Part shown: piece after piece, positions 2,878 to 63,255 of the stretch
How the letters are laid out: each line of letters opens with the position of its first letter
Position numbering within the stretch: the stretch's first letter is position 1
Notes under the pieces: generated by a model
Database searches by the model: none
What the model was told of the DNA's origin: nothing
What the model saw: only the letters and a program-made list of their open reading frames with translations
Program-made: the position numbers and the translations under genes
Source of the DNA: Candidatus Shapirobacteria bacterium
GTDB taxonomy: Bacteria; Patescibacteriota; Microgenomatia; 0-14-0-10-38-17
Direction of reading: 5' to 3'
Assembly: GCA_018052565.1 (NCBI GenBank)
Contig: JAGPNC010000003.1
Coordinates: forward strand, 587 to 64,586
Length of the DNA: 64,000 nucleotides

Positions 2878-3897
2878 TTAAAACCAAAAAAGCGGGCTTT
2901 GGAGACGACGCAAGAATTTCTGGCCGGCAAAATTTAGAGCCGGGTTGGGAGAAGACAAATAATAATTAGCTAAACCTAAATTAGCCCTGTAAGAAGAAGG
3001 GTTTGCCTCGTAAGCTTTTTTAAAAAACCACAAGGCTTTTTCTCCTTCTCCCGCCGTTTGGAAGAAATTGGCCAAAGAGACAAGGCCGCAAGAAGAAGAG
3101 TTTTCTGCCGCTAACTTATTCTCATCTAAAACAATGGCGCTCGCCGCCGGCGAGGAGGTAAAAATCACCACCGCATCATCTAAATAAACTAACTTCCAGG
3201 CGGGATCGTGATAGAGGCGGCTTAAAAAAGTCTGAAACCATGGCGTCTGGTCATGGTGAAAAAGAAAAACTTCCTCAATTTGCCATTTGGCTACTAATTT
3301 TTCCCAAGTCTCGCTGTCTTCTTGAGCCTGACGATATTCTTCCCAAAACTCCGTCGGATAAGCCTCGGGACGGAAGTCGGTAAAAACTGGCCACTGGGGC
3401 CAAAGACAGCCCGCTAAAAAACTGCCGATGTCAAAATTATTGAAAAAATGAGTTCCCGGCACAGAATAAGTTTTAAAAAACTCCACTCCCCTCTCGGCTT
3501 CTTTTTCTCCTCCCCAGCCGAAAGAAGCTTCTCTATCATTAATCAGGTAATAATGGTTACTCGCATAAAAAACGGTAAAAAAGACAAAAGCCAAAAGGTT
3601 GAAAATAACCAAAGCGGGCTTTAACTTTTTGGATAAAGGGGAGTTAATTTTGTCCCAGAGGCGAGGCAAATTTCGGCCTAAAACAAAAAACGAAAAAAGA
3701 GCAAAAAACGGAAAGTGGCGGATTTGCCAAAAGGCGGCTCCTGATAGCGCTAACCAAACGGAAAAAAGCAAGCCATCGCGGCGAAGAAACATAAAGGTAA
3801 GTAAAACCAGAACAAAACAAAGCTTAAAAAAGAAGATGTTGCGAAAACCGCCAAAGCCTCCCAAAAAAAAAGATTGACTGATTTTCCGCAATCTCAT
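2878..3897 (-). CDS. hypothetical membrane-anchored protein with TPR-like C-terminus; possibly the C-terminal part of a frameshifted larger membrane protein
   Basis: TM helices at the N-terminus and a soluble W/F-rich domain. It overlaps the next ORF by 74 nt in another frame, across an A9 homopolymer (3857-3865). Confidence 0.4.
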   Translation of the reverse strand: MRLRKISQSFFLGGFGGFRNIFFFKLCFVLVLLTFMFLRRDGLLFSVWLALSGAAFWQIRHFPFFALFSFFVLGRNLPRLWDKINSPLSKKLKPALVIFNLLAFVFFTVFYASNHYYLINDREASFGWGGEKEAERGVEFFKTYSVPGTHFFNNFDIGSFLAGCLWPQWPVFTDFRPEAYPTEFWEEYRQAQEDSETWEKLVAKWQIEEVFLFHHDQTPWFQTFLSRLYHDPAWKLVYLDDAVVIFTSSPAASAIVLDENKLAAENSSSCGLVSLANFFQTAGEGEKALWFFKKAYEANPSSYRANLGLANYYLSSPNPALNFAGQKFLRRLQSPLFWF

Positions 3898-4609
3898 AAC
3901 CGTAGTTTTCCCAAATCAGAAAAGGCGCCAGCGCCCCCCTTAAGCCATAAGGATTAACTAAATTCGCCAAAATGGCCAAAACCACCGGTATGCTTTGGCG
4001 CGAAAACAGTTTCTTTTCCCTCCAAAGAGAAAAAAAATAGGCTACCAGAAGAAGGTCGCCAAAAACAAAAGAAAGATGGGCATTAACCCAAAACGCCTGG
4101 CAAATCGGTAAAAGATAAAGCCAGCGCTTTTCTCCCCTGTGGCTCTTGGCAAAAACTAAAAGATAAAGGGCGAAAAAGAAAAAGCCGAAAATTTCCGGCC
4201 GGACATCGGTTCTTTCCCGAAAAACCAAAAGAGGCAAAAGAAGAGCCGTAAAAGAAAGAAAGGCATTTTCTTCATCAACCACCAGAAAAAAAATTATCCC
4301 AAAGGCCAGAAGAAAAAGAAGAACCTTAAAGGCAACAAGCGCCCGATCCCCTCCTAAGCTAAAAACCTGATAAAAGACAACCTCCGCCAGCCAATGATGA
4401 TTGGTAAAGGGAAAATCGGGGGAAGTATAGGAAAAAAGATTTGTCCGCGGCAGATAATGCTCTTTTGAAATTACCTCCCCCAACCTTAGGTGGCGGCCTA
4501 AATCCTGACTCCACTCCCGGGTGGTAGTGTGAAAATAAAAAATAAAAACTAAAATAAGACTTAAAATTAGCCAAAAGAATTTTTTCCGGCTCACTTCCTT
4601 GGAGACCAA
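3824..4609 (-). CDS. polytopic integral membrane protein (possible N-terminal part of a split or frameshifted gene)
   Basis: About 8 predicted hydrophobic helices. It ends inside the start of the downstream ORF. Confidence 0.4.
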   Translation of the reverse strand: MVSKEVSRKKFFWLILSLILVFIFYFHTTTREWSQDLGRHLRLGEVISKEHYLPRTNLFSYTSPDFPFTNHHWLAEVVFYQVFSLGGDRALVAFKVLLFLLAFGIIFFLVVDEENAFLSFTALLLPLLVFRERTDVRPEIFGFFFFALYLLVFAKSHRGEKRWLYLLPICQAFWVNAHLSFVFGDLLLVAYFFSLWREKKLFSRQSIPVVLAILANLVNPYGLRGALAPFLIWENYGYEIAENQSIFFFGRLWRFSQHLLF

Positions 4610-5340
4610 AATATTCCCAAGGGGATCTTATCGTTGTTCTCTCCTAAAAATTCGAGTAAAGAGGAGTAGTTTTTCGGAGTGTTTTGGGGGTAATAAATTC
4701 TTTTTCTAAAATATTCTTGGTTATAATCATCGGACCAAACTAAACAGGGCATTATTATTTCTACCAAGGAAAAACCTTGGTGCTTGATGGCGGCTTCAAT
4801 GATAGCAGTGGCTTGGGGAAGATCAAAGGCGAAGGCACGAGAGAGGAAGGCCTTGGGCGAGGCGGCGGCGGTCAAGAGGAGAGGTTGAAGGGGAGGATAA
4901 GGATTGCCTTGAGGGGTGGATTTTGTTGCCAAACCGGCGGGGGTGGCGGAGGAAGCCTGACCGGCAGTAAGGGCAAAAACCAAATTATTGTGAAGCAAAA
5001 CGGTAATATTGTCATTTCTTTGAGCAGCGTGAATCAGATGATTAGCGCCTTCGTTTAAAAGACCGCCATCCCCTGCTTGGGCAATCACCGTTAATCCGGG
5101 ATTGGCCAACTTAGCCCCCACGGCCACCGGCACCGAGCGGCCATGGAGGGTGGCAAACCCGCAAACCCGCAAAAGATTAACCATATTTCCCCCGCAACCA
5201 ATATCATAAGTGACTACCGCGTCTTTTGGGGCAATTTTAAGCTCTACCAGAGCCTGTTTCAAGCTTTGCAAAACCCCAAAATTGCCGCACCCCGGACACC
5301 AGGTAGGAAGCTGGTTGGTAGAATAATTATTTATATTCAT
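4591..5340 (-). CDS. porB: 2-oxoacid:ferredoxin oxidoreductase, beta (TPP-binding) subunit
   Basis: CPGCGNFG cysteine motif, GDG TPP-binding motif, and a length typical of PorB/KorB. Confidence 0.8.
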   Translation of the reverse strand: MNINNYSTNQLPTWCPGCGNFGVLQSLKQALVELKIAPKDAVVTYDIGCGGNMVNLLRVCGFATLHGRSVPVAVGAKLANPGLTVIAQAGDGGLLNEGANHLIHAAQRNDNITVLLHNNLVFALTAGQASSATPAGLATKSTPQGNPYPPLQPLLLTAAASPKAFLSRAFAFDLPQATAIIEAAIKHQGFSLVEIIMPCLVWSDDYNQEYFRKRIYYPQNTPKNYSSLLEFLGENNDKIPLGIFWSPRK

Positions 5341-39375: not shown

Positions 39376-39385
39376 TTTCTGCACA

Positions 39386-39749
39386 GGTGGAGATGGGGAG
39401 GAATGACCTCCCGTCCGAAAAAAACCCTTCTGAATTTCTCCAAGCTCAGTTAGCCCTTTAAATTTTCTTTTGGGATTTTCGCTGCTAACCGCTTTTCCCA
39501 AAAATAGCCTTTAATTCTCTGCTTTTTTTCTTAAGGCGAAGAAAAAAAGCGCCTCTTGCCTTCCGTTTTCACCTTCCCTGCCCCGACAAGAGAGGGAAAA
39601 GAAGATGCTTTTCCTTACGCGAAAGCGTAATTCAAAGAGTAGTCGACATTATTGTCGGCATTCTTTTTTGGTGAATTTTGACAGGGTAATCACCTTCCCT
39701 GGCTTGCCCTTCAGAACAGGCTTTCTCCGTCGATTCAAAGAGCATCCCC
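39386..39749 (-). ncRNA. ssrA: transfer-messenger RNA (tmRNA, SsrA)
   Basis: The 5' end GGGGAUGCUCUUUGAAUCGACGG matches the tmRNA consensus GGGGCUGAUUCUGGAUUCGACGG. The 3' end GGACGGGAGGUCAUUCCUCCCCAUCUCCACC closes an acceptor stem carrying the G3·U wobble. Internal tag reading frame: ADNNVDYSLNYAFA-UAA. The gene lies directly downstream of smpB. Confidence 0.7.
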
Positions 39750-41360: not shown

Positions 41361-41364
41361 TTAG

Positions 41365-41438
41365 TGCGCCTGGCCGGATTTGAACCGGCAATCTTTGGCT
41401 CCGGAGGCCAACGCTTTATCCAATTAAGCCACAGGCGC
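41365..41438 (-). tRNA. tRNA-Arg (anticodon CCG)
   Basis: Manual cloverleaf fold: acceptor GCGCCUG, anticodon loop CUCCGGA, T-loop UUCAAAU, 74 nt. Confidence 0.8.

Positions 41439-42636: not shown

Positions 42637-42647
<11 letters not shown>
42399..42647 (-). CDS. hypothetical small protein
   Basis: An 82-aa ORF whose start overlaps the upstream gene. Confidence 0.35.
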
Positions 42648-44284
<1,637 letters not shown>

Positions 44285-44462: not shown

Positions 44463-44552
44463 TGGCGGAGGGAGGGAGATTCGAACTCCCGTGGACAATA
44501 ATGCCCGCAAGGTTTTCGAGACCTGCCAGATAAGCCACTCCTGCATCCCTCC
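44463..44552 (-). tRNA. tRNA-Ser (anticodon CGA), long variable arm, CCA encoded
   Basis: Manual fold: acceptor GGAGGGA, anticodon loop CUCGAAA, long extra arm, T-loop UUCGAAU, 90 nt. Confidence 0.75.
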
Positions 44553-44695: not shown

Positions 44696-44696
44696 G

Positions 44697-44770
44697 TGCG
44701 CCTGGGGCGATTTGAACGCCCAACCGCCAGCTCCGCAAGCTGATGCTCTATCCAGTTGAGCTACAGGCGC
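44697..44770 (-). tRNA. tRNA-Arg (anticodon GCG as read)
   Basis: Manual fold: acceptor GCGCCUG, D-arm GCUCAACUGGAUAGAGC, anticodon stem UCAGC/GCUGG, loop UUGCGGA, T-loop UUCAAAU. Confidence 0.7.
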
Positions 44771-57329: not shown

Positions 57330-57908
57330 ATGAAGCCCAAGCTTTTGGTTCCTCTTTTTTTTCTTCTTCTTGCCGGAATAGGGACATGGCTGGTGGTGGG
57401 GAAAGGGAAAGAATTTACCCCAACGGTTTCTGAAGAAGATGAAGACGAAACCCAGCTTTTAAAAAGAATAAATAGCACGCCAACGCCGCTTCCGGAAAAT
57501 ACTCCCACAACAGAGACGCCAACAAGCGCTGCTTCGACGGTTCCCTTGCCGACAGAAGAAGATATTGTCAGGCTCTTTTTTAACCTTATTGACGAGGAAA
57601 GAATCCCCGAGGCGGTGGCGATGATGAGTGTTGAAGCCGTTCCCGATGACAGCTACAGGCAAGCCTGGGGAGTGCAGTTCAACGCCCTTGACTCAATTAA
57701 AGTTTCCAAAATTGAGCCTTATGATCAGGGAAATTGGAGCCCCAGCAGCCATACCTACAAGGTTAATTTGGAGGTGGCGGTTTCCGAAAATGCCGCCAAC
57801 GCCCCCATCCCCTATTATGGCTGGGAGAATGGCGATAACCTGCGCTGGGTGGAAATTGTCAAAGAGGGAGATCTTTGGAAAATTAACCAAATTGCCACGG
57901 GAGCGTAA
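57330..57908 (+). CDS. hypothetical membrane-anchored protein
   Basis: N-terminal TM and a TATAAT-like box at 57318. Confidence 0.4.
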   Translation: MKPKLLVPLFFLLLAGIGTWLVVGKGKEFTPTVSEEDEDETQLLKRINSTPTPLPENTPTTETPTSAASTVPLPTEEDIVRLFFNLIDEERIPEAVAMMSVEAVPDDSYRQAWGVQFNALDSIKVSKIEPYDQGNWSPSSHTYKVNLEVAVSENAANAPIPYYGWENGDNLRWVEIVKEGDLWKINQIATGA

Positions 57909-58056
57909 AATTTCTCCTTAATTCACTAAATATAGATTTTCTTCTACCTAAATACCAGCCTGGGATTTTAATGTTAATTTAATACCCCTCTATCTTCATT
58001 TAGTATCTTCATGGTTTTTAAGTGAAAAAGCGGGGAGATTTTGATAAGATAAAAAT

Positions 58057-59967
58057 ATGGAAAACTTATTAGACAATTTAAAAAACTTACTTAAAAAAGA
58101 CGAACGGCTGGTGAGCGAAGGCGAGCTTTTGAAAAACAAAATTGTTGAGTTAGCTTTAAAATTGGATAAGGACTTGATTGAACTTCTTTTATCTGATGAA
58201 AAAATAAAAGAAGTATTTTTTAGGCAAGTTGGTAAAGCTGCAATTTTTGACAAAGATAAGTTTATTAAGTTTGTTTCCAATAAGCAATTTTTACCGGATA
58301 GTTATACTGCTTTTAAAAATAAGATTGGTTTAACAGTTGATGATGAATTTATTAGCGAGAAAAAAGAAGTTGTTCTTTCTTGGCCTTATAAGGACTGTGT
58401 TTTAGAAGGCGGAATGACCAAGGAAGACCAAAAGCGAGATGAAATTTTCTGGAACCAAACACTTGCGCCGGATGAAATCAGCCGCCTTTTAGACCCGAAA
58501 GTTTTTACTAATGCAAAAAGGATTGATAAAAACGGCGAACATAAATTTGATGGATTTAAAACAGATGAAAACGGAGATATAAAAGACAATCTCATCATCA
58601 AGGGCAACAATCTTTTAGCCCTCCACTCCCTCAAAAAACGCTTTGCCGGAAGAGTAAAACTCATTTACATTGATCCGCCGTATAATACTGGAGGTCCGCA
58701 GGATACTTTCACTTACAACAACAGCTTTAAACACTCTACATGGCTAACCTTTATAAAAAATAGGCTGGAGATAGCCAAGAGTCTTTTACAGGAGGATGGA
58801 TTTATTGCAATAACGATTGACCATGTTGAGCTTTTTTACCTGGGGGCACTAGCTGATGAGGTATTTGGGAAAGAGAACAGGATTGGAATAGTAACAATTT
58901 ATATAAACCCTAAAGGGAGACAGCATGAAAAATTTTTTGCTGCCTCGACTGAGTATATGCTGGTTTATGCAAAAAACATAAAAGCTGCGAAGTTTAATAA
59001 GGTTATCCTGGATGAGGAGAAGGCAAAGAAATTTAATTTAGAAGATGAACGTGGAAGATATAGATTAGAACCTTTTATAAGAGCAAGAACAGATACCCTT
59101 AGAAAGAATAAACCAGATTTTTGGTATCCAATTTATGTAAGTAAAGACCTAAAAGAAATAATTTTAGAGAGAAAACCCAACTATTACGAAGTTTGGCCGG
59201 TTAAAAACGGTAAAGAATTTACGTGGAAAACAATTCCGGAAACTTTTGATGAAAGAAATTCCAAAGGTTATTTTGTTGCTAAAAAAGAAAACGAGAGAAT
59301 TGTCATTTATCATAAATTCTACGAACAGCAAGTTTTAAAAAATATATGGATAGACAAAAAGTATTTTCCAGAATTCCAGGGCACTCAATTACTTAAAAAA
59401 CTTTTAGGGGAATCCAAGTTTAGTTATCCAAAGTCATTATACGCCGTACGGGATACTCTCAAGATAATGACGAAAAATGATGATTTAATACTTGATTTTT
59501 TCGCCGGGTCAGGAACAACAGGGCATGCAACTTTAGAACTTAACAAACAAGATGGTGGGAAGAGAAAATTTATTTTGGTTGAGCAACTTGATGAACATTT
59601 ATCAGTTATAAGGGAAAGAATGAAAAAAGTTTTTGAATATCTAGATGGTGGTGATTTTATTTATTTAGAACTAATGAAATGGAATGAGAATTTTATTGAG
59701 AAAATAAAGAAAGCAAAAACAAAAGAAGAATTAAAGAGATTATGGGAGACAATAAAGGAAAAAGCGTTTTTGAGTTATAAAGTTGATGTAAAAGCGATTG
59801 ATGAAAATGCAAAAGATTTTGCTGATTTATCTATTGAAAACCAGAAAAGATTTTTAGTTGAGTGTTTAGACAAAAATCATCTTTATGTAAATTATAGCGA
59901 AATTGATGATGAAGAGTATGGAGTAAGCAAGGAAGATAAAAAGTTAAATAAGGAGTTTTATGGATAA
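58057..59967 (+). CDS. mod: Type III restriction-modification methyltransferase (Mod)
   Basis: IYIDPPYNTG catalytic motif, FFAGSGTTGHA AdoMet motif, and the overall Type III Mod layout. Confidence 0.8.
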   Translation: MENLLDNLKNLLKKDERLVSEGELLKNKIVELALKLDKDLIELLLSDEKIKEVFFRQVGKAAIFDKDKFIKFVSNKQFLPDSYTAFKNKIGLTVDDEFISEKKEVVLSWPYKDCVLEGGMTKEDQKRDEIFWNQTLAPDEISRLLDPKVFTNAKRIDKNGEHKFDGFKTDENGDIKDNLIIKGNNLLALHSLKKRFAGRVKLIYIDPPYNTGGPQDTFTYNNSFKHSTWLTFIKNRLEIAKSLLQEDGFIAITIDHVELFYLGALADEVFGKENRIGIVTIYINPKGRQHEKFFAASTEYMLVYAKNIKAAKFNKVILDEEKAKKFNLEDERGRYRLEPFIRARTDTLRKNKPDFWYPIYVSKDLKEIILERKPNYYEVWPVKNGKEFTWKTIPETFDERNSKGYFVAKKENERIVIYHKFYEQQVLKNIWIDKKYFPEFQGTQLLKKLLGESKFSYPKSLYAVRDTLKIMTKNDDLILDFFAGSGTTGHATLELNKQDGGKRKFILVEQLDEHLSVIRERMKKVFEYLDGGDFIYLELMKWNENFIEKIKKAKTKEELKRLWETIKEKAFLSYKVDVKAIDENAKDFADLSIENQKRFLVECLDKNHLYVNYSEIDDEEYGVSKEDKKLNKEFYG

Positions 59968-60661
59968 GTTACCGTTCTCCTTAAATTTTTTCAAACAAAT
60001 TGAATGTTTTCAGGAAATCGAGCGTTTAGATAAACAATTTGATGAAATGCTTCTCGAATGGAAAAAGGGCGGATATAAAAAGGGGGGTATTTCAGAAAGT
60101 ATCAACATTAACTATCCTACTTGGGAAATAGAAAAGAAGATTCTTTTTTGGGCATCCAGAGAACATAAGCATCTTGGTTCTCCTATTACAACTACCCATT
60201 TATCTGATGAAAGTTTTCAAAAAGATATACATTGCACAGAAACAGAATTAGAGTTTGCTGGAAAAGAGGAAGTATTAAAAAACCTCACTAGTAGAGGATT
60301 AGCGTCTTGGCAAAATGGCGCTGTTGTATCCCAAAAAGGATTGGACTATGGTCTTGTTATTGCTGATTTATATGAGATAAAAAAGGATGAGAATATTAAA
60401 AGAGGAGAGACGGAATATAGGGAAGAGCTTCTTGTTAAGAGGAAGATTAGATGGTTTGGATATAAATTAATTTACTTTTCTGCTCTCACCTTAATATTTT
60501 CCAGTTTAATCTTTTTAGGGCTAGAGATTTTTAGAGCTGCGAATATTGCTATACCATTTTTGAATATTACTATAAAAACGGGATTAAAATATTTAGTAGT
60601 TTTAATGGGTTTTATTCCAGCTTTTTTATTTTTGTTAGGTTTATTTTTTTCAAATATATAA
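59960..60661 (+). CDS. hypothetical protein with two C-terminal TM helices, inserted between mod and res
   Basis: A 233-aa ORF that overlaps the mod stop and ends 2 nt before res. Confidence 0.45.
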   Translation: MDKLPFSLNFFKQIECFQEIERLDKQFDEMLLEWKKGGYKKGGISESININYPTWEIEKKILFWASREHKHLGSPITTTHLSDESFQKDIHCTETELEFAGKEEVLKNLTSRGLASWQNGAVVSQKGLDYGLVIADLYEIKKDENIKRGETEYREELLVKRKIRWFGYKLIYFSALTLIFSSLIFLGLEIFRAANIAIPFLNITIKTGLKYLVVLMGFIPAFLFLLGLFFSNI

Positions 60662-60663
60662 CT

Positions 60664-63255
60664 ATGCTTTACGAAACTTTTAATGCTAATAAGGAATCAT
60701 TGGGAGAGGATTTTTTTACTTCACGAATCGATGATGAAGTAGTCCGGAATTTGAATCCGAAATTTGAGTTACGTGAATATCAAAAAGAAGCATTAGGCCG
60801 CTTTGATTTTTATTTTAAAAATTATCAAAAACGAGTTTATCCGGCACATTTACTATTTCATATGGCTACCGGAAGCGGTAAAACATTGATTATGGCTGCT
60901 AATATTTTACAGCTTTATAAACAAGGTTATCGCAATTTTATTTTTTTTGTAAACAGCACGAATATTATCGAAAAGACAAAAGACAATTTTTTGAATCCAC
61001 TTTCGGAAAAATATTTATTCGCGTCAAAAATTAAGTTTGGCGGAAAAGAAGTTTTTGTAAAAGAAGTTGATAATTTTGAGGCGGCAAGCCCAGATGACAT
61101 AAATATCCTCTTTACAACAATTCAAGGATTGCATATTCGTTTAAATTTTCCCAAAGAAAACGCTTTGACTTATGAAGATTTTGCCGACAAAGAAATTGTT
61201 TTAATTTCTGATGAAGCGCACCATTTACAAACAATCACCAAACAAGACAAAAAAGAGCTTGAATTAGAAAAAAGTTGGGAATATACAGTTAAAAAAATAT
61301 TAAATAGCAATATCAGAAATATCTTGTTGGAATTTACCGCTACTATTGATTTGGGCAATCAAAACATTAGGCAGAAATATGAAGACAAGATTATTTTTCA
61401 ATACGATTTAAAACAATTTAGATTAGATAAATACTCAAAAGAAATAGAGGTTTTACAGGCAGATTTAGAAGCAGTAGATAGAGCATTGCAAGCAGTAATT
61501 TTAAGTCAATATCGTCGAAAAATTGCTGAAAAATATAAATTGCATTTGAAGCCAGTTCTTCTTTTTAAGTCAAAGAGTATCAAAGAATCAAAAGAAAATT
61601 ATGATGACTTTTTAGAGAAAATAAAAAGTTTGTCTTCAAAAGACATTCAAGAGATAAGTTCACGGGCAAAAGGAACGGATTTAGAAAAGGCATTTAATTA
61701 TTTTAAAAAAGAAAATATAACTTTTGAAAATTTAATTAAGGAGTTGCAAGAAGATTTTCCAGAAGAAAAAGTGATGCTTTTGGATTCTGAAAATGTTGAT
61801 GAAGAAAAACAATTAAAATTAAATTCATTAGAAAATAAAAATAATGAAATAAGGGCAATTTTTGCGGTAAATATGCTTAATGAAGGTTGGGATGTGTTAA
61901 ATTTATTTGACATTGTAAGGTTGTATGATACAAGAGACGGTAGATGGGATAGGAGGCTTAATAAATATAAACCTGGTCCAACTACATTAGGTGAAGCTCA
62001 ACTCATTGGGAGAGGCGCAAGGTATTTCCCATTTCAGTTAGATTCTGTTCAAGATAAATATAAAAGAAAATTTGATGAAGATATTGAAAATGAACTTCGG
62101 ATTTTAGAAACATTACATTATCATAGCGCTCATAACCCAAGATATATTGACGAGATAAAAAGTACACTTACAGAAATGGGGATTATGCCAGAAAAATATA
62201 TTCAGAAAGATTTATTTATTAAAGAAAATATTAAGAAAAGATGGAAAAATGATTATATTTTTATAAACGATAGGGGATTAAACCAACGAAAAGATATAAA
62301 AAGCTTAAATGATGCGAAAATTAAAGAACAATATAGTTATGAGATAAAAACGGGCGAAATTAAAGAGGAATTTATTTTAGGCGAGGCGGGGGAAATAAAG
62401 AAATCGAAAAATATTGTAAAAAAGAGAGTAAAATATAAAATTTCTGATTTTGGAAAAAATCTTATAAGAGGCGCATTGGATAAATTAGAGTTTTATAAGT
62501 TTGAAGCATTTAAAAAATATTTTCCTCATTTAAAATCGATACAAGAATTTATTATCTCTGATAATTACTTAAAAAATGTTGAAATAGAAATAATAGGGCC
62601 GGAGAACAAAATAAAAAGGTTGACACAAGATGATAAATTGGCAATTGTTTTATCTGTGGTTAACGAAATAGCAGATCAAGCAAAAATAAATACCTCAGAA
62701 TACAAAGGAACAACTTTATTTAAAGCGAAAGCATTATGGGAAGTTTTTAAGGATAAAAAAATAAAGATAGACAAAGATGAAGCAGAACAAAAAGAATTTA
62801 CAGATATTGATTTAGAAAAGACAGATTGGTATGGACAAAAGATATTTTATGGGACAAGCGAGGAAAAAAGTTTTATTGATTTTATTAGCGGATTGATAGA
62901 GGAGTTAAAGAAAAAATACTCAGATATTGCCTTATTACGAAATGAAAAGTTTTTTCAAATTTATGATTTTGACGAAGGTAGGGCATTTGAGCCGGATTTT
63001 GTAATGTTATTGAAAGAAAAAAACCATAAAATTACCATTTATCAAGTCTTTATTGAGCCAAAAGGAGAATTTTTAGTAAAAAATGATGAATGGAAGCAAA
63101 AATTTTTACTTGATATAGAAGAAAAATCTAAACTGCAAAAAGATTTAGTAATGGACATGGAAAATAAGGATTTTAAGTTAATCGGGTTACCATTTTATAA
63201 CGAGCAGTTAAAAAAAGATTTTGAAGAAGCATTAGAGAGTAAAATTTTAAGATAA
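60664..63255 (+). CDS. res: Type III restriction enzyme, Res subunit (SF2 helicase-nuclease)
   Basis: Walker A MATGSGKTL and DEAH box LISDEAHHL. Confidence 0.8.
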   Translation: MLYETFNANKESLGEDFFTSRIDDEVVRNLNPKFELREYQKEALGRFDFYFKNYQKRVYPAHLLFHMATGSGKTLIMAANILQLYKQGYRNFIFFVNSTNIIEKTKDNFLNPLSEKYLFASKIKFGGKEVFVKEVDNFEAASPDDINILFTTIQGLHIRLNFPKENALTYEDFADKEIVLISDEAHHLQTITKQDKKELELEKSWEYTVKKILNSNIRNILLEFTATIDLGNQNIRQKYEDKIIFQYDLKQFRLDKYSKEIEVLQADLEAVDRALQAVILSQYRRKIAEKYKLHLKPVLLFKSKSIKESKENYDDFLEKIKSLSSKDIQEISSRAKGTDLEKAFNYFKKENITFENLIKELQEDFPEEKVMLLDSENVDEEKQLKLNSLENKNNEIRAIFAVNMLNEGWDVLNLFDIVRLYDTRDGRWDRRLNKYKPGPTTLGEAQLIGRGARYFPFQLDSVQDKYKRKFDEDIENELRILETLHYHSAHNPRYIDEIKSTLTEMGIMPEKYIQKDLFIKENIKKRWKNDYIFINDRGLNQRKDIKSLNDAKIKEQYSYEIKTGEIKEEFILGEAGEIKKSKNIVKKRVKYKISDFGKNLIRGALDKLEFYKFEAFKKYFPHLKSIQEFIISDNYLKNVEIEIIGPENKIKRLTQDDKLAIVLSVVNEIADQAKINTSEYKGTTLFKAKALWEVFKDKKIKIDKDEAEQKEFTDIDLEKTDWYGQKIFYGTSEEKSFIDFISGLIEELKKKYSDIALLRNEKFFQIYDFDEGRAFEPDFVMLLKEKNHKITIYQVFIEPKGEFLVKNDEWKQKFLLDIEEKSKLQKDLVMDMENKDFKLIGLPFYNEQLKKDFEEALESKILR

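Follow-up and report, generated by a model that had tools for sequence, protein, structure and literature searches.

A membrane-protein gene at the mod-res junction of a Type III restriction-modification operon from Candidatus Shapirobacteria, and the variable content of that junction in related operons

Bacteria of the candidate phyla radiation (CPR, or Patescibacteria) make up much of the diversity of bacteria. Most of them have no CRISPR and are believed to depend heavily on restriction-modification (R-M), and their immune repertoire is barely charted because the available tools were trained on cultivated genomes. We describe here an R-M operon of such a bacterium, carried on a stretch of 64,000 nucleotides of contig JAGPNC010000003.1 from Candidatus Shapirobacteria (positions 587 to 64,586; hereafter the window), in which a gene coding for a 233-amino acid (aa) putative membrane protein, called X below, stands between the mod and res genes of a Type III system. 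In Type III R-M systems Mod hemimethylates DNA, and ATP-dependent cleavage needs two inversely oriented unmethylated sites. The guardian proteins PrrC and RloC combine an N-terminal ABC ATPase with a C-terminal HEPN anticodon nuclease, are held inactive by an R-M system and are activated by anti-restriction. R-M controller (C) proteins are Xre/HTH_3 dimers of about 70-100 aa, usually encoded upstream of the R gene and acting on C-box operators.

Type III R-M systems and accessory defence genes embedded in such systems are already known kinds. A survey of Hma, BREX, DISARM and Type I R-M systems in RefSeq by Payne et al. (2024) described guilt-by-embedding, whereby genes lying within multigene defence systems turned out to be predominantly defence genes, with seven validated and 145 added to PADLOC as candidates (bioRxiv 10.1101/2024.01.29.577857). 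A Type Ic R-M locus contains an embedded PrrC gene (PMC12707154), and genes coding for HEPN, RhuM and Fic proteins lie within R-M operons (PMC3710099). X resembles these embedded candidates in being an uncharacterised, non-pseudogene ORF (open reading frame) on the same strand as its hosts and nested between core defence genes, in having no mobilome, housekeeping or known-defence match in Pfam, NCBIfam, PADLOC, PHROGs or IMG/VR, and in sharing its slots with the PADLOC candidates PDC-S13 and PDC-S23 and alternating with an Old nuclease. It differs from them in that it is hosted by R-M systems of the Type III and BcgI-like classes, from metagenome bins of CPR, and in matching none of the PDC and HEC models, so that it would be a new candidate family. 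Within the searched libraries and literature, three features appear to be new: the X family, whose architecture has no counterpart among known defence proteins; the role of mod-res junctions of Type III systems and RM-S junctions of BcgI-like systems as cargo slots, the embedding survey having covered neither these classes (Type III and IIB) nor CPR genomes; and the confinement of named X sources to CPR.

Anatomy and composition of the operon

In the window, mod, X and res are three intact co-directional ORFs in a tight chain (Table 1). The domains, motifs and order of mod and res, with mod first and res in the same orientation in one operon, are those of the EcoP15I/EcoP1I type, from which the operon differs by the ORF of 702 nt between them and by a junction that is polymorphic within the lineage. 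The product of mod matches PF12564 TypeIII_RM_meth (2.1e-22, residues 37-92), PF01555 N6_N4_Mtase (9.3e-32, residues 200-518) and the PADLOC model MTase_III (5.5e-144), and its translation carries IDPPYN (motif IV, DPPY) ahead of FFAGSGTTG (motif I, FxGxG), the order of the beta class of N6/N4 methyltransferases; no simple-sequence tract hinting at phase variation was found in mod. The product of res matches PF04851 ResIII (2.8e-31) and PADLOC REase_III (5.8e-131), the latter spanning residues 24-861 of its 863 and positions 28-860 of the 873-position model, and displays the superfamily 2 helicase motifs MATGSGKT and SDEAHH together with a C-terminal EPDF...IEPKG motif of the PD-(D/E)xK-like kind. 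Judged by their sequences, which carry every testable feature of the class, mod and res form a genuine Type III R-M system with full-length subunits.

Table 1. Positions of the features of the mod-X-res locus in the window
Feature	Positions	Strand	Basis
mod-X-res block, AT-rich Type III R-M operon with embedded cargo	58057..63255	+	ORFs, GC, homologues
Upstream intergenic region, presumed (putative) operon promoter	57909..58056	+	sequence position
mod, Type III methyltransferase/specificity subunit, 636 aa, intact	58057..59967	+	Pfam, PADLOC, motifs
mod/X junction, 8-nt overlap	59950..59967	+	read from sequence
X, 233-aa cargo gene, unnamed CPR family	59960..60661	+	homologues, AlphaFold2 model
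X, predicted soluble cytoplasmic domain, aa 1-161	59960..60442	+	AlphaFold2 model, conservation
X, predicted C-terminal membrane hairpin: TM1 aa 162-193, short outside loop, TM2 aa 203-232	60443..60655	+	model, hydropathy, charge
X/res junction, 2-nt spacer	60659..60666	+	read from sequence
res, Type III restriction subunit, 863 aa, intact	60664..63255	+	Pfam, PADLOC, motifs
TM, transmembrane helix; GC, G+C content.

The two junctions are short. The start codon of X (ATG at 59960) lies within the end of mod and overlaps the mod stop codon (TAA, 59965-59967), the shared nucleotides being ATGGATAA, and a Shine-Dalgarno sequence, AAGGAG at 59950-59955, stands 4 nt 5' of the X start; an overlap of this kind is typical of translational coupling, which we infer here from the sequence. 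X ends with TAA at 60659-60661 and the ATG of res follows at 60664 after a gap of 2 nt, before which no Shine-Dalgarno sequence is visible on inspection of the junction. Since res has no ribosome-binding site of its own and X is chained to it, its translation is likely to be dependent on that of the upstream cargo.

The block has a G+C content of 0.304 compared with 0.425 for the remaining window, a z score of -5.7 against 529 sliding 5.2-kb segments whose minimum is 0.365, and third-position values of 0.29, 0.26 and 0.23 in mod, X and res, respectively. The block is compositionally foreign and was acquired horizontally, for which the occurrence across many phyla of res relatives that are 72-89% identical provides independent support. 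An initial annotation of this DNA, made without database searches, had already read the locus as a Type III system with a membrane-protein gene between mod and res, far more AT-rich than its surroundings, as would fit recent transfer; its three ORFs on the + strand, their overlap and the 2-nt gap agree exactly with ours, the Pfam and PADLOC matches and the motifs bear out the class assignment, and the foreign composition, together with res relatives in CPR, DPANN-labelled, Omnitrophica, Nitrospirae and Desantisbacteria bins, bears out the transfer. At the borders of 58057-63255 neither a tRNA gene, an integrase nor convincing direct repeats were found, the repeat matches being of the AT-rich kind expected by chance. 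A promoter scan gave fewer sigma-70-like sites than in shuffled sequences (18 versus 24.7), and the weak sigma-70-like matches upstream of mod at 57856-57883 and 57883-57911 are not evidence of function; a terminator scan of the locus found none.

A variable slot between mod and res

Relatives of the window res that are 72-89% identical occur in bins labelled Pacebacteria, Pacearchaeota, Omnitrophica, Nitrospirae, Desantisbacteria and Edwardsbacteria, some of which labels, such as Pacearchaeota, may be wrong. To judge by these sequences, the res lineage of the window is remarkably conserved, widely distributed and highly mobile. The content of the mod-res junction changes from one relative to the next. 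The loci with the closest res (L033-35 in our numbering, 89% identical) hold a 532-aa protein with AAA_15/AAA_21 and OLD-TOPRIM domains, which matches the PADLOC model Old (1.3e-45); in L033 this Old-family ABC-ATPase/TOPRIM nuclease (3401-4999) overlaps the mod stop codon and ends 1 nt before res. At 88% identity (L036-38), the slot is occupied by a soluble protein of 234 aa unrelated to X, and at 81% (L039) it is empty, mod being followed by res after 2 nt. The window mod is 73% identical to that of L036 and 57% identical to that of L033.

More distant relatives extend the series. In the plasmid pA2BH1 of Chryseobacterium sp. (L040, NZ_MN657149.1, 2659-12445; res 51% identical) a 145-aa 'hypothetical protein' with a partial match to a Type II restriction endonuclease model (2e-18) lies between mod and res, giving an example of the layout in a cultivated organism, and a 1612-aa protein resembling Tiamat TmtA is encoded directly 3' of res. 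In Thioclava (L041, 45%) and Streptococcus salivarius (L042, 42%) mod and res are contiguous, with GajA after res in the latter. That mod and res are normally contiguous, as the initial annotation had held, is thus borne out by L039, L041 and L042.

The 234-aa cargo of L036 (4291-4995) matches phrog_2039 (9.3e-6), weakly matches PDB entries 2jpu/2q00 (E 0.13) and ends in RNLCDH, an Rx4H motif; it has no Pfam or PADLOC match and may be a HEPN-type RNase, for which these features are only suggestive. A homology of this protein to X was considered and excluded by BLASTP and hhalign.

The geometry of the junction is kept whatever it holds. The distance to the res ATG is 2 nt when the slot is empty (L039), 1 nt with the Old protein (L033), 5 nt with the 234-aa cargo (L036) and 2 nt with X. 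Every slot cargo thus stops 1-5 nt ahead of the res ATG, so that the translational chain into res is preserved. Moreover, no non-identical homologue of X exceeds 66% identity while res relatives reach 88-89%, which leaves no room for an orthologue of X in the closest res relatives. X is therefore swappable modular cargo in the slot and not a fixed third subunit, and the best-supported conclusion is that the conserved feature is the slot itself, the mod-res junction serving as a site for cargo.

These comparisons bear on the suggestion of the initial annotation that mod, X and res might make up a dedicated composite defence system. In that form the suggestion is not supported, given that close res relatives have other genes or nothing in the slot and that X is also found with BcgI-like, Type IIG and Type I-like systems, with small methylases and, in 9 of 25 contexts, with no R-M gene at all. 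Recurrence of the triad in other genomes, which had been set as the test, was found in part: X follows mod of the same Type III lineage in two further, diverged copies (L043/44 and L045), and the gene after X differs each time. In L044, the ORF 3' of the closest homologue of X (66% identical; ORF at 1158-1256) opens with MKNIKDKRVYAFIDANNLNLG, which is not a res N-terminus and which may be an NYN/LabA-type start; this 33-aa fragment has no Pfam match.

The X family and its contexts

X has no match in Pfam, NCBIfam, PHROGs or the 5027 models of PADLOC (v2.0.0, including the PDC and HEC models), the lone NCBIfam line, YidC at E 0.01, being far below the cut-off and due to hydrophobic helices. 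A word-indexed search retrieved 26 homologues of 230-240 aa, which are 38-66% identical to X apart from one identical entry, annotated as hypothetical protein KBI33_01215 in a Candidatus Shapirobacteria metagenome-assembled genome (MAG) at NCBI. Their alignment has 26 invariant positions, mostly within LPFxLNFFKQ, NYPTWExEKK and HKHLGS, and an exhaustive profile search of 1.84 billion representatives extended this small family to 136 clusters at 50% identity, whose members include forms of about 160 aa with a single TM helix as well as longer ones with additional helices. X is a real, conserved gene under constraint. The genome-resolved sources are all CPR (Parcubacteria, Magasanikiibacteriota, Uhrbacteria and Falkowbacteria). 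A phage origin was considered and dropped, X having no relatives in the viral contigs of IMG/VR or in PHROGs. For ten distant or short members of the family, Pfam gave no match and a cluster look-up returned 'hypothetical protein' only.

A confident AlphaFold2 model of X built with the family alignment (pLDDT 84.5, pTM 0.80) consists, in order, of a long N-terminal helix, a helical core, two successive beta-hairpins and two C-terminal helices, 162-193 and 203-232. Nearly all invariant polar residues fall in aa 1-161 (NYPTWExEKK, HKHLGS, E96 and R112), and P220 in the second TM helix is also invariant across the homologues. The Kyte-Doolittle hydrophobic segments, at about residues 168-201 and 207-233, agree with the modelled helices, and the mean charge over 26 sequences is +3.1 before TM1 and +2.0 in the C-terminal tail, following the positive-inside rule. 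Together, model, hydropathy and charge indicate a membrane hairpin with both termini predicted to lie inside, and the soluble N-terminal domain followed by two TM helices that the initial annotation had deduced is borne out. Within the core, the order of helix, helix, recognition-like helix (VLKNLxxRG), beta-hairpin wing and helix is suggestive of a winged helix. The top Foldseek matches, all weak (E >= 0.8, probability <= 0.23), are winged helices of PadR/VanR, MarR-like proteins, Pol III C82 and MukF; small viral helical proteins also match weakly, and no sequence relative of X was found in the PDB.

Several variants of the family deserve mention. A subgroup of about 150-190 aa (P0094, P0106, P0114, P0120 and some 50 similar sequences) has a single C-terminal TM helix and retains the N-terminal motifs ELPIQLxFFxKLExYQ, WxxEKxxLxW, HHHLG and NLxQRG. 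At the other extreme, a Falkowbacteria MAG encodes a 454-aa form with added TM helices and a C-terminal domain of about 140 aa (L015, 8001-9365), and further long forms reach 579 aa (P0048) and 408 aa (P0052). A copy in a Parcubacteria MAG (L012, 7564-8263), 65% identical to that of the window and beside a PDDEXK_3 gene, is broken into ORFs of 119 and 100 aa and is apparently a decaying pseudogene.

The neighbours of X were annotated with Pfam, PADLOC and local BLAST in 25 non-redundant contexts, in which genes are simple ORF calls, and a context was counted as R-M-associated when an R-M gene stood on the same strand within two genes of X. This was the case in 16 of the 25, with none in the other nine; under an assumed (unmeasured) background of 2-10%, such adjacency has a P value of 1e-21 to 8e-11. 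The partners belong to several R-M classes. Besides the Type III loci described above, L010 has a different Type III lineage in the order HTH (helix-turn-helix), X, mod, res, the first being a separate 69-aa HTH_3 gene. In BcgI-like split systems, X lies between an RM gene (HSDR_N_2 and N6_Mtase domains) and the S gene (L013, L046, L016 and L018-20), and truncated versions of this arrangement occur in L021, L025 and L029. Elsewhere X stands between a Type IIG enzyme and UvrD (L008); after GmrSD, an HsdR-like gene, an M/S fusion and a 199-aa ORF (L003); two genes 3' of a small N6_N4 methylase (L001); ahead of Bro-N and an HsdM fragment (L022); or, as the long form of L015, between Mrr (an Mrr_cat restriction endonuclease) and a secreted-type SNase-LTD nuclease. 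X is thus wedged between the subunits of two unrelated R-M classes, Type III mod-res and BcgI-like RM-S, and commonly lies directly 3' of a methyltransferase-bearing gene.

An all-against-all BLAST of the neighbours revealed no constant partner of X, only R-M subunits and Bro-N/PDC-S13 recurring. In a neighbour-joining tree, the copies from the window, L043 and L045, all of the 'Type III mod then X' layout, form one clade and those from BcgI-like contexts fall in at least three, which argues that X persists within an R-M lineage and also moves between R-M types. The protein encoded 3' of X in L045 (RhuM-Fic, 883-1899) matches PDC-S23 (5e-124), and the Bro-N protein encoded 5' of X in L018-20 (L018, 2823-3713) matches PDC-S13 (5.6e-128), both of which are embedding-derived PADLOC candidates; since these genes share slots with X, slots can hold two or more cargo genes. 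Most contexts free of R-M genes have neighbours typical of mobilome or defence islands, such as RhuM (fragments), DUF2726, PIN_12, PDDEXK_3, GIY-YIG, DUF559 and a serine recombinase.

Two further neighbours were recorded. In L016, a 116-aa protein with a single TM helix is encoded directly 5' of X in the BcgI-like operon (4352-4702), and its match to SLATT_6 (E 0.059) is very weak and well below threshold. In L021, the 76-aa ORF immediately 5' of X (39-269) matches the catalytic domain of the archaeal DNA polymerase II large subunit DP2 (1.7e-29), which suggests an archaeal (perhaps DPANN) contig or a chimeric assembly; together with the 88%-identical res labelled 'Pacearchaeota', it is a hint of exchange between domains or of errors in binning.

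Possible roles of X and other features of the window

From its architecture and contexts we favour, with slightly better than even confidence, the view of X as an independent accessory immune gene carried by R-M operons and providing a second-line defence of the abortive-infection type. It would be co-expressed with the operon through its chaining, by the overlap with the mod stop codon and the 2-nt distance to res. Its soluble domain would sense an infection cue, either a phage protein or DNA, and its hairpin would serve as the effector, with oligomers that permeabilise or depolarise the membrane, or would at least anchor the protein at the site of DNA entry. Swapping of cargo would presumably proceed through homologous recombination in the conserved flanks, at the 3' end of mod and the 5' end of res. 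X shares with the SLATT 2TM proteins, CBASS Cap15, Pycsar PycTM and RexB a soluble domain, a short membrane module and a defence context. It differs from them in matching neither a Pfam SLATT family nor a PADLOC effector model and in having no associated signal-generating enzyme, and it differs from TM abortive effectors in its C-terminal hairpin and winged-helix-like N-terminal domain.

Several points weigh against an immune role. X matches no PADLOC model and no known transmembrane-effector family, and comparisons of its fold are uninformative, the lowest E values being 0.8 against the PDB and 0.79 against BFVD. The winged-helix-like character of the core is read from secondary-structure order and weak matches, and the isoelectric point of the N-terminal domain spans 5.1-9.8 over the family, without a uniform DNA-binding signature. 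The two-helix hairpin may be a mere anchor, pore formation being conjectural. Many of the contexts are short metagenomic contigs, the background for the enrichment is assumed and R-M genes may be comparatively frequent in CPR genomes, and some of the R-M-free contexts adjoin housekeeping genes (DnaX, an Asx-tRNA synthetase and a glycosyltransferase). The initial annotation had likened X to an abortive-infection add-on, which stands as a reasonable hypothesis.

Other roles have been weighed against the same observations. X could be a functional partner of the R-M system, either a PrrC-like guardian freed by a phage anti-restriction protein or a membrane tether of the R-M complex. Its exact position between subunits, with translational chaining, its usual place directly 3' of a methyltransferase-bearing gene, the cytoplasmic domain adjoining the membrane and the single clade of Type III-associated copies, suggesting prolonged co-inheritance, all speak for such a partnership, and PrrC/EcoprrI, likewise an accessory gene between R-M subunits with a plausible second-line role, provides a precedent (PMC12707154; PMC3710099). 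The subunits that X accompanies, however, are unrelated (a beta-class Type III Mod, a gamma-class BcgI-like RM, a Type IIG enzyme and a small Type II-like methylase), which makes a common protein interface unlikely, nine contexts have no R-M gene, and close Type III relatives have an empty slot or other cargo. X also has no sequence or fold similarity to PrrC or RloC and contains neither an ABC ATPase nor a HEPN domain nor an Rx4-6H motif; unlike PrrC, it is predicted to be membrane-anchored and occurs with several unrelated R-M classes as well as away from them. We regard a partnership as unlikely. Rather less probable again is that X is a non-immune passenger carried with mobile R-M cassettes, be it a CPR membrane protein of the envelope, competence or host attachment or a selfish ORF that tolerates operon junctions. 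The nine R-M-free contexts, some with housekeeping neighbours, the lack of any defence-family match, the pseudogene of L012 and the restriction of named sources to CPR, possibly reflecting lineage-specific cell biology, would fit a passenger. Against a passenger stand the very strong enrichment beside R-M genes and the repeated embedding between subunits, the known or candidate defence genes that share the slots with X or replace it there (Old, PDC-S13, PDC-S23 and the HEPN-like protein), and the mobilome and defence-island neighbours of most R-M-free copies; embedded genes were mostly neither housekeeping genes nor mobile elements in the published survey (bioRxiv 10.1101/2024.01.29.577857).

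Regulation of the operon in the manner of a C protein, by a winged helix that binds an operator or by an ORF that sets the translation rate of res through coupling and so delays restriction after methylation, draws on the winged-helix-like core and on the position of X ahead of a res gene without its own Shine-Dalgarno sequence. The secondary-structure order resembles that of PadR and MarR regulators, which also supply the weak top Foldseek matches; these matches are non-significant and accompanied by no profile match, and the long conserved N-terminal helix and the hairpin set X apart. X carries no HTH_3/Xre signature and, with 233 aa and a membrane hairpin, is unlike C proteins, while L010 has a separate HTH_3 gene upstream of its R-M genes and X. 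The coupling geometry does not change when the slot is empty or filled by unrelated cargo, and so belongs to the slot rather than to X. Moreover, X can stand behind the last R-M gene or away from R-M genes altogether. A regulatory role is for these reasons quite improbable. The possibility that X is an artefact, namely an N-terminal fragment of res or an ORF created by a frameshift or assembly error, had been named in the initial annotation as what would undo it, and can be set aside almost entirely: res is full-length, aligning from position 28 of its model and beginning with MLYETF where its homologues likewise begin with MLYE(T/I)F, and X is dissimilar to res and has at least 26 full-length homologues of the same size from many samples and contexts, among them the identical KBI33_01215.

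If X proves to be protective, it would be a new single-gene defence and bring with it a simple search rule; if not, the locus amounts to a normal Type III R-M operon plus a passenger. A family absent from all the libraries searched and tied to R-M operons beyond the assumed background is a testable lead, as are the cargo slots at mod-res and RM-S junctions, which extend guilt-by-embedding to so far unmined lineages and classes of R-M. A bolder and doubtful proposal is that X is a new R-M-coupled effector, which would monitor the methyltransferase subunit or its bound DNA across R-M classes and collapse the membrane upon anti-restriction attack, or would bring R-M complexes to the point where DNA enters the ultra-small CPR cells, with Type III and BcgI-like junctions acting as general, previously unsurveyed hotspots that exchange immune cargo by recombination through their conserved flanks. 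Were this true, many defence genes of uncultivated lineages could still be discovered at such junctions.

Elsewhere in the window, Rfam detects a full-length tmRNA on the - strand at 39385-39749 (121 bits, E 1e-46) that was not reported by ARAGORN. Finally, a second AT-rich island (42637-44260, - strand, G+C content 0.33-0.35) is a complete Type II R-M pair, in which a methyltransferase gene (43427-44260; PADLOC MTase_II, 3.2e-136) overlaps the gene of a 279-aa restriction enzyme (42637-43476; REase_II, 1.3e-81). This island is bracketed by genes for tRNA-Arg (41364-41438), tRNA-Ser (44463-44552, called by ARAGORN and below the Rfam gathering score) and a further tRNA-Arg (44696-44770).

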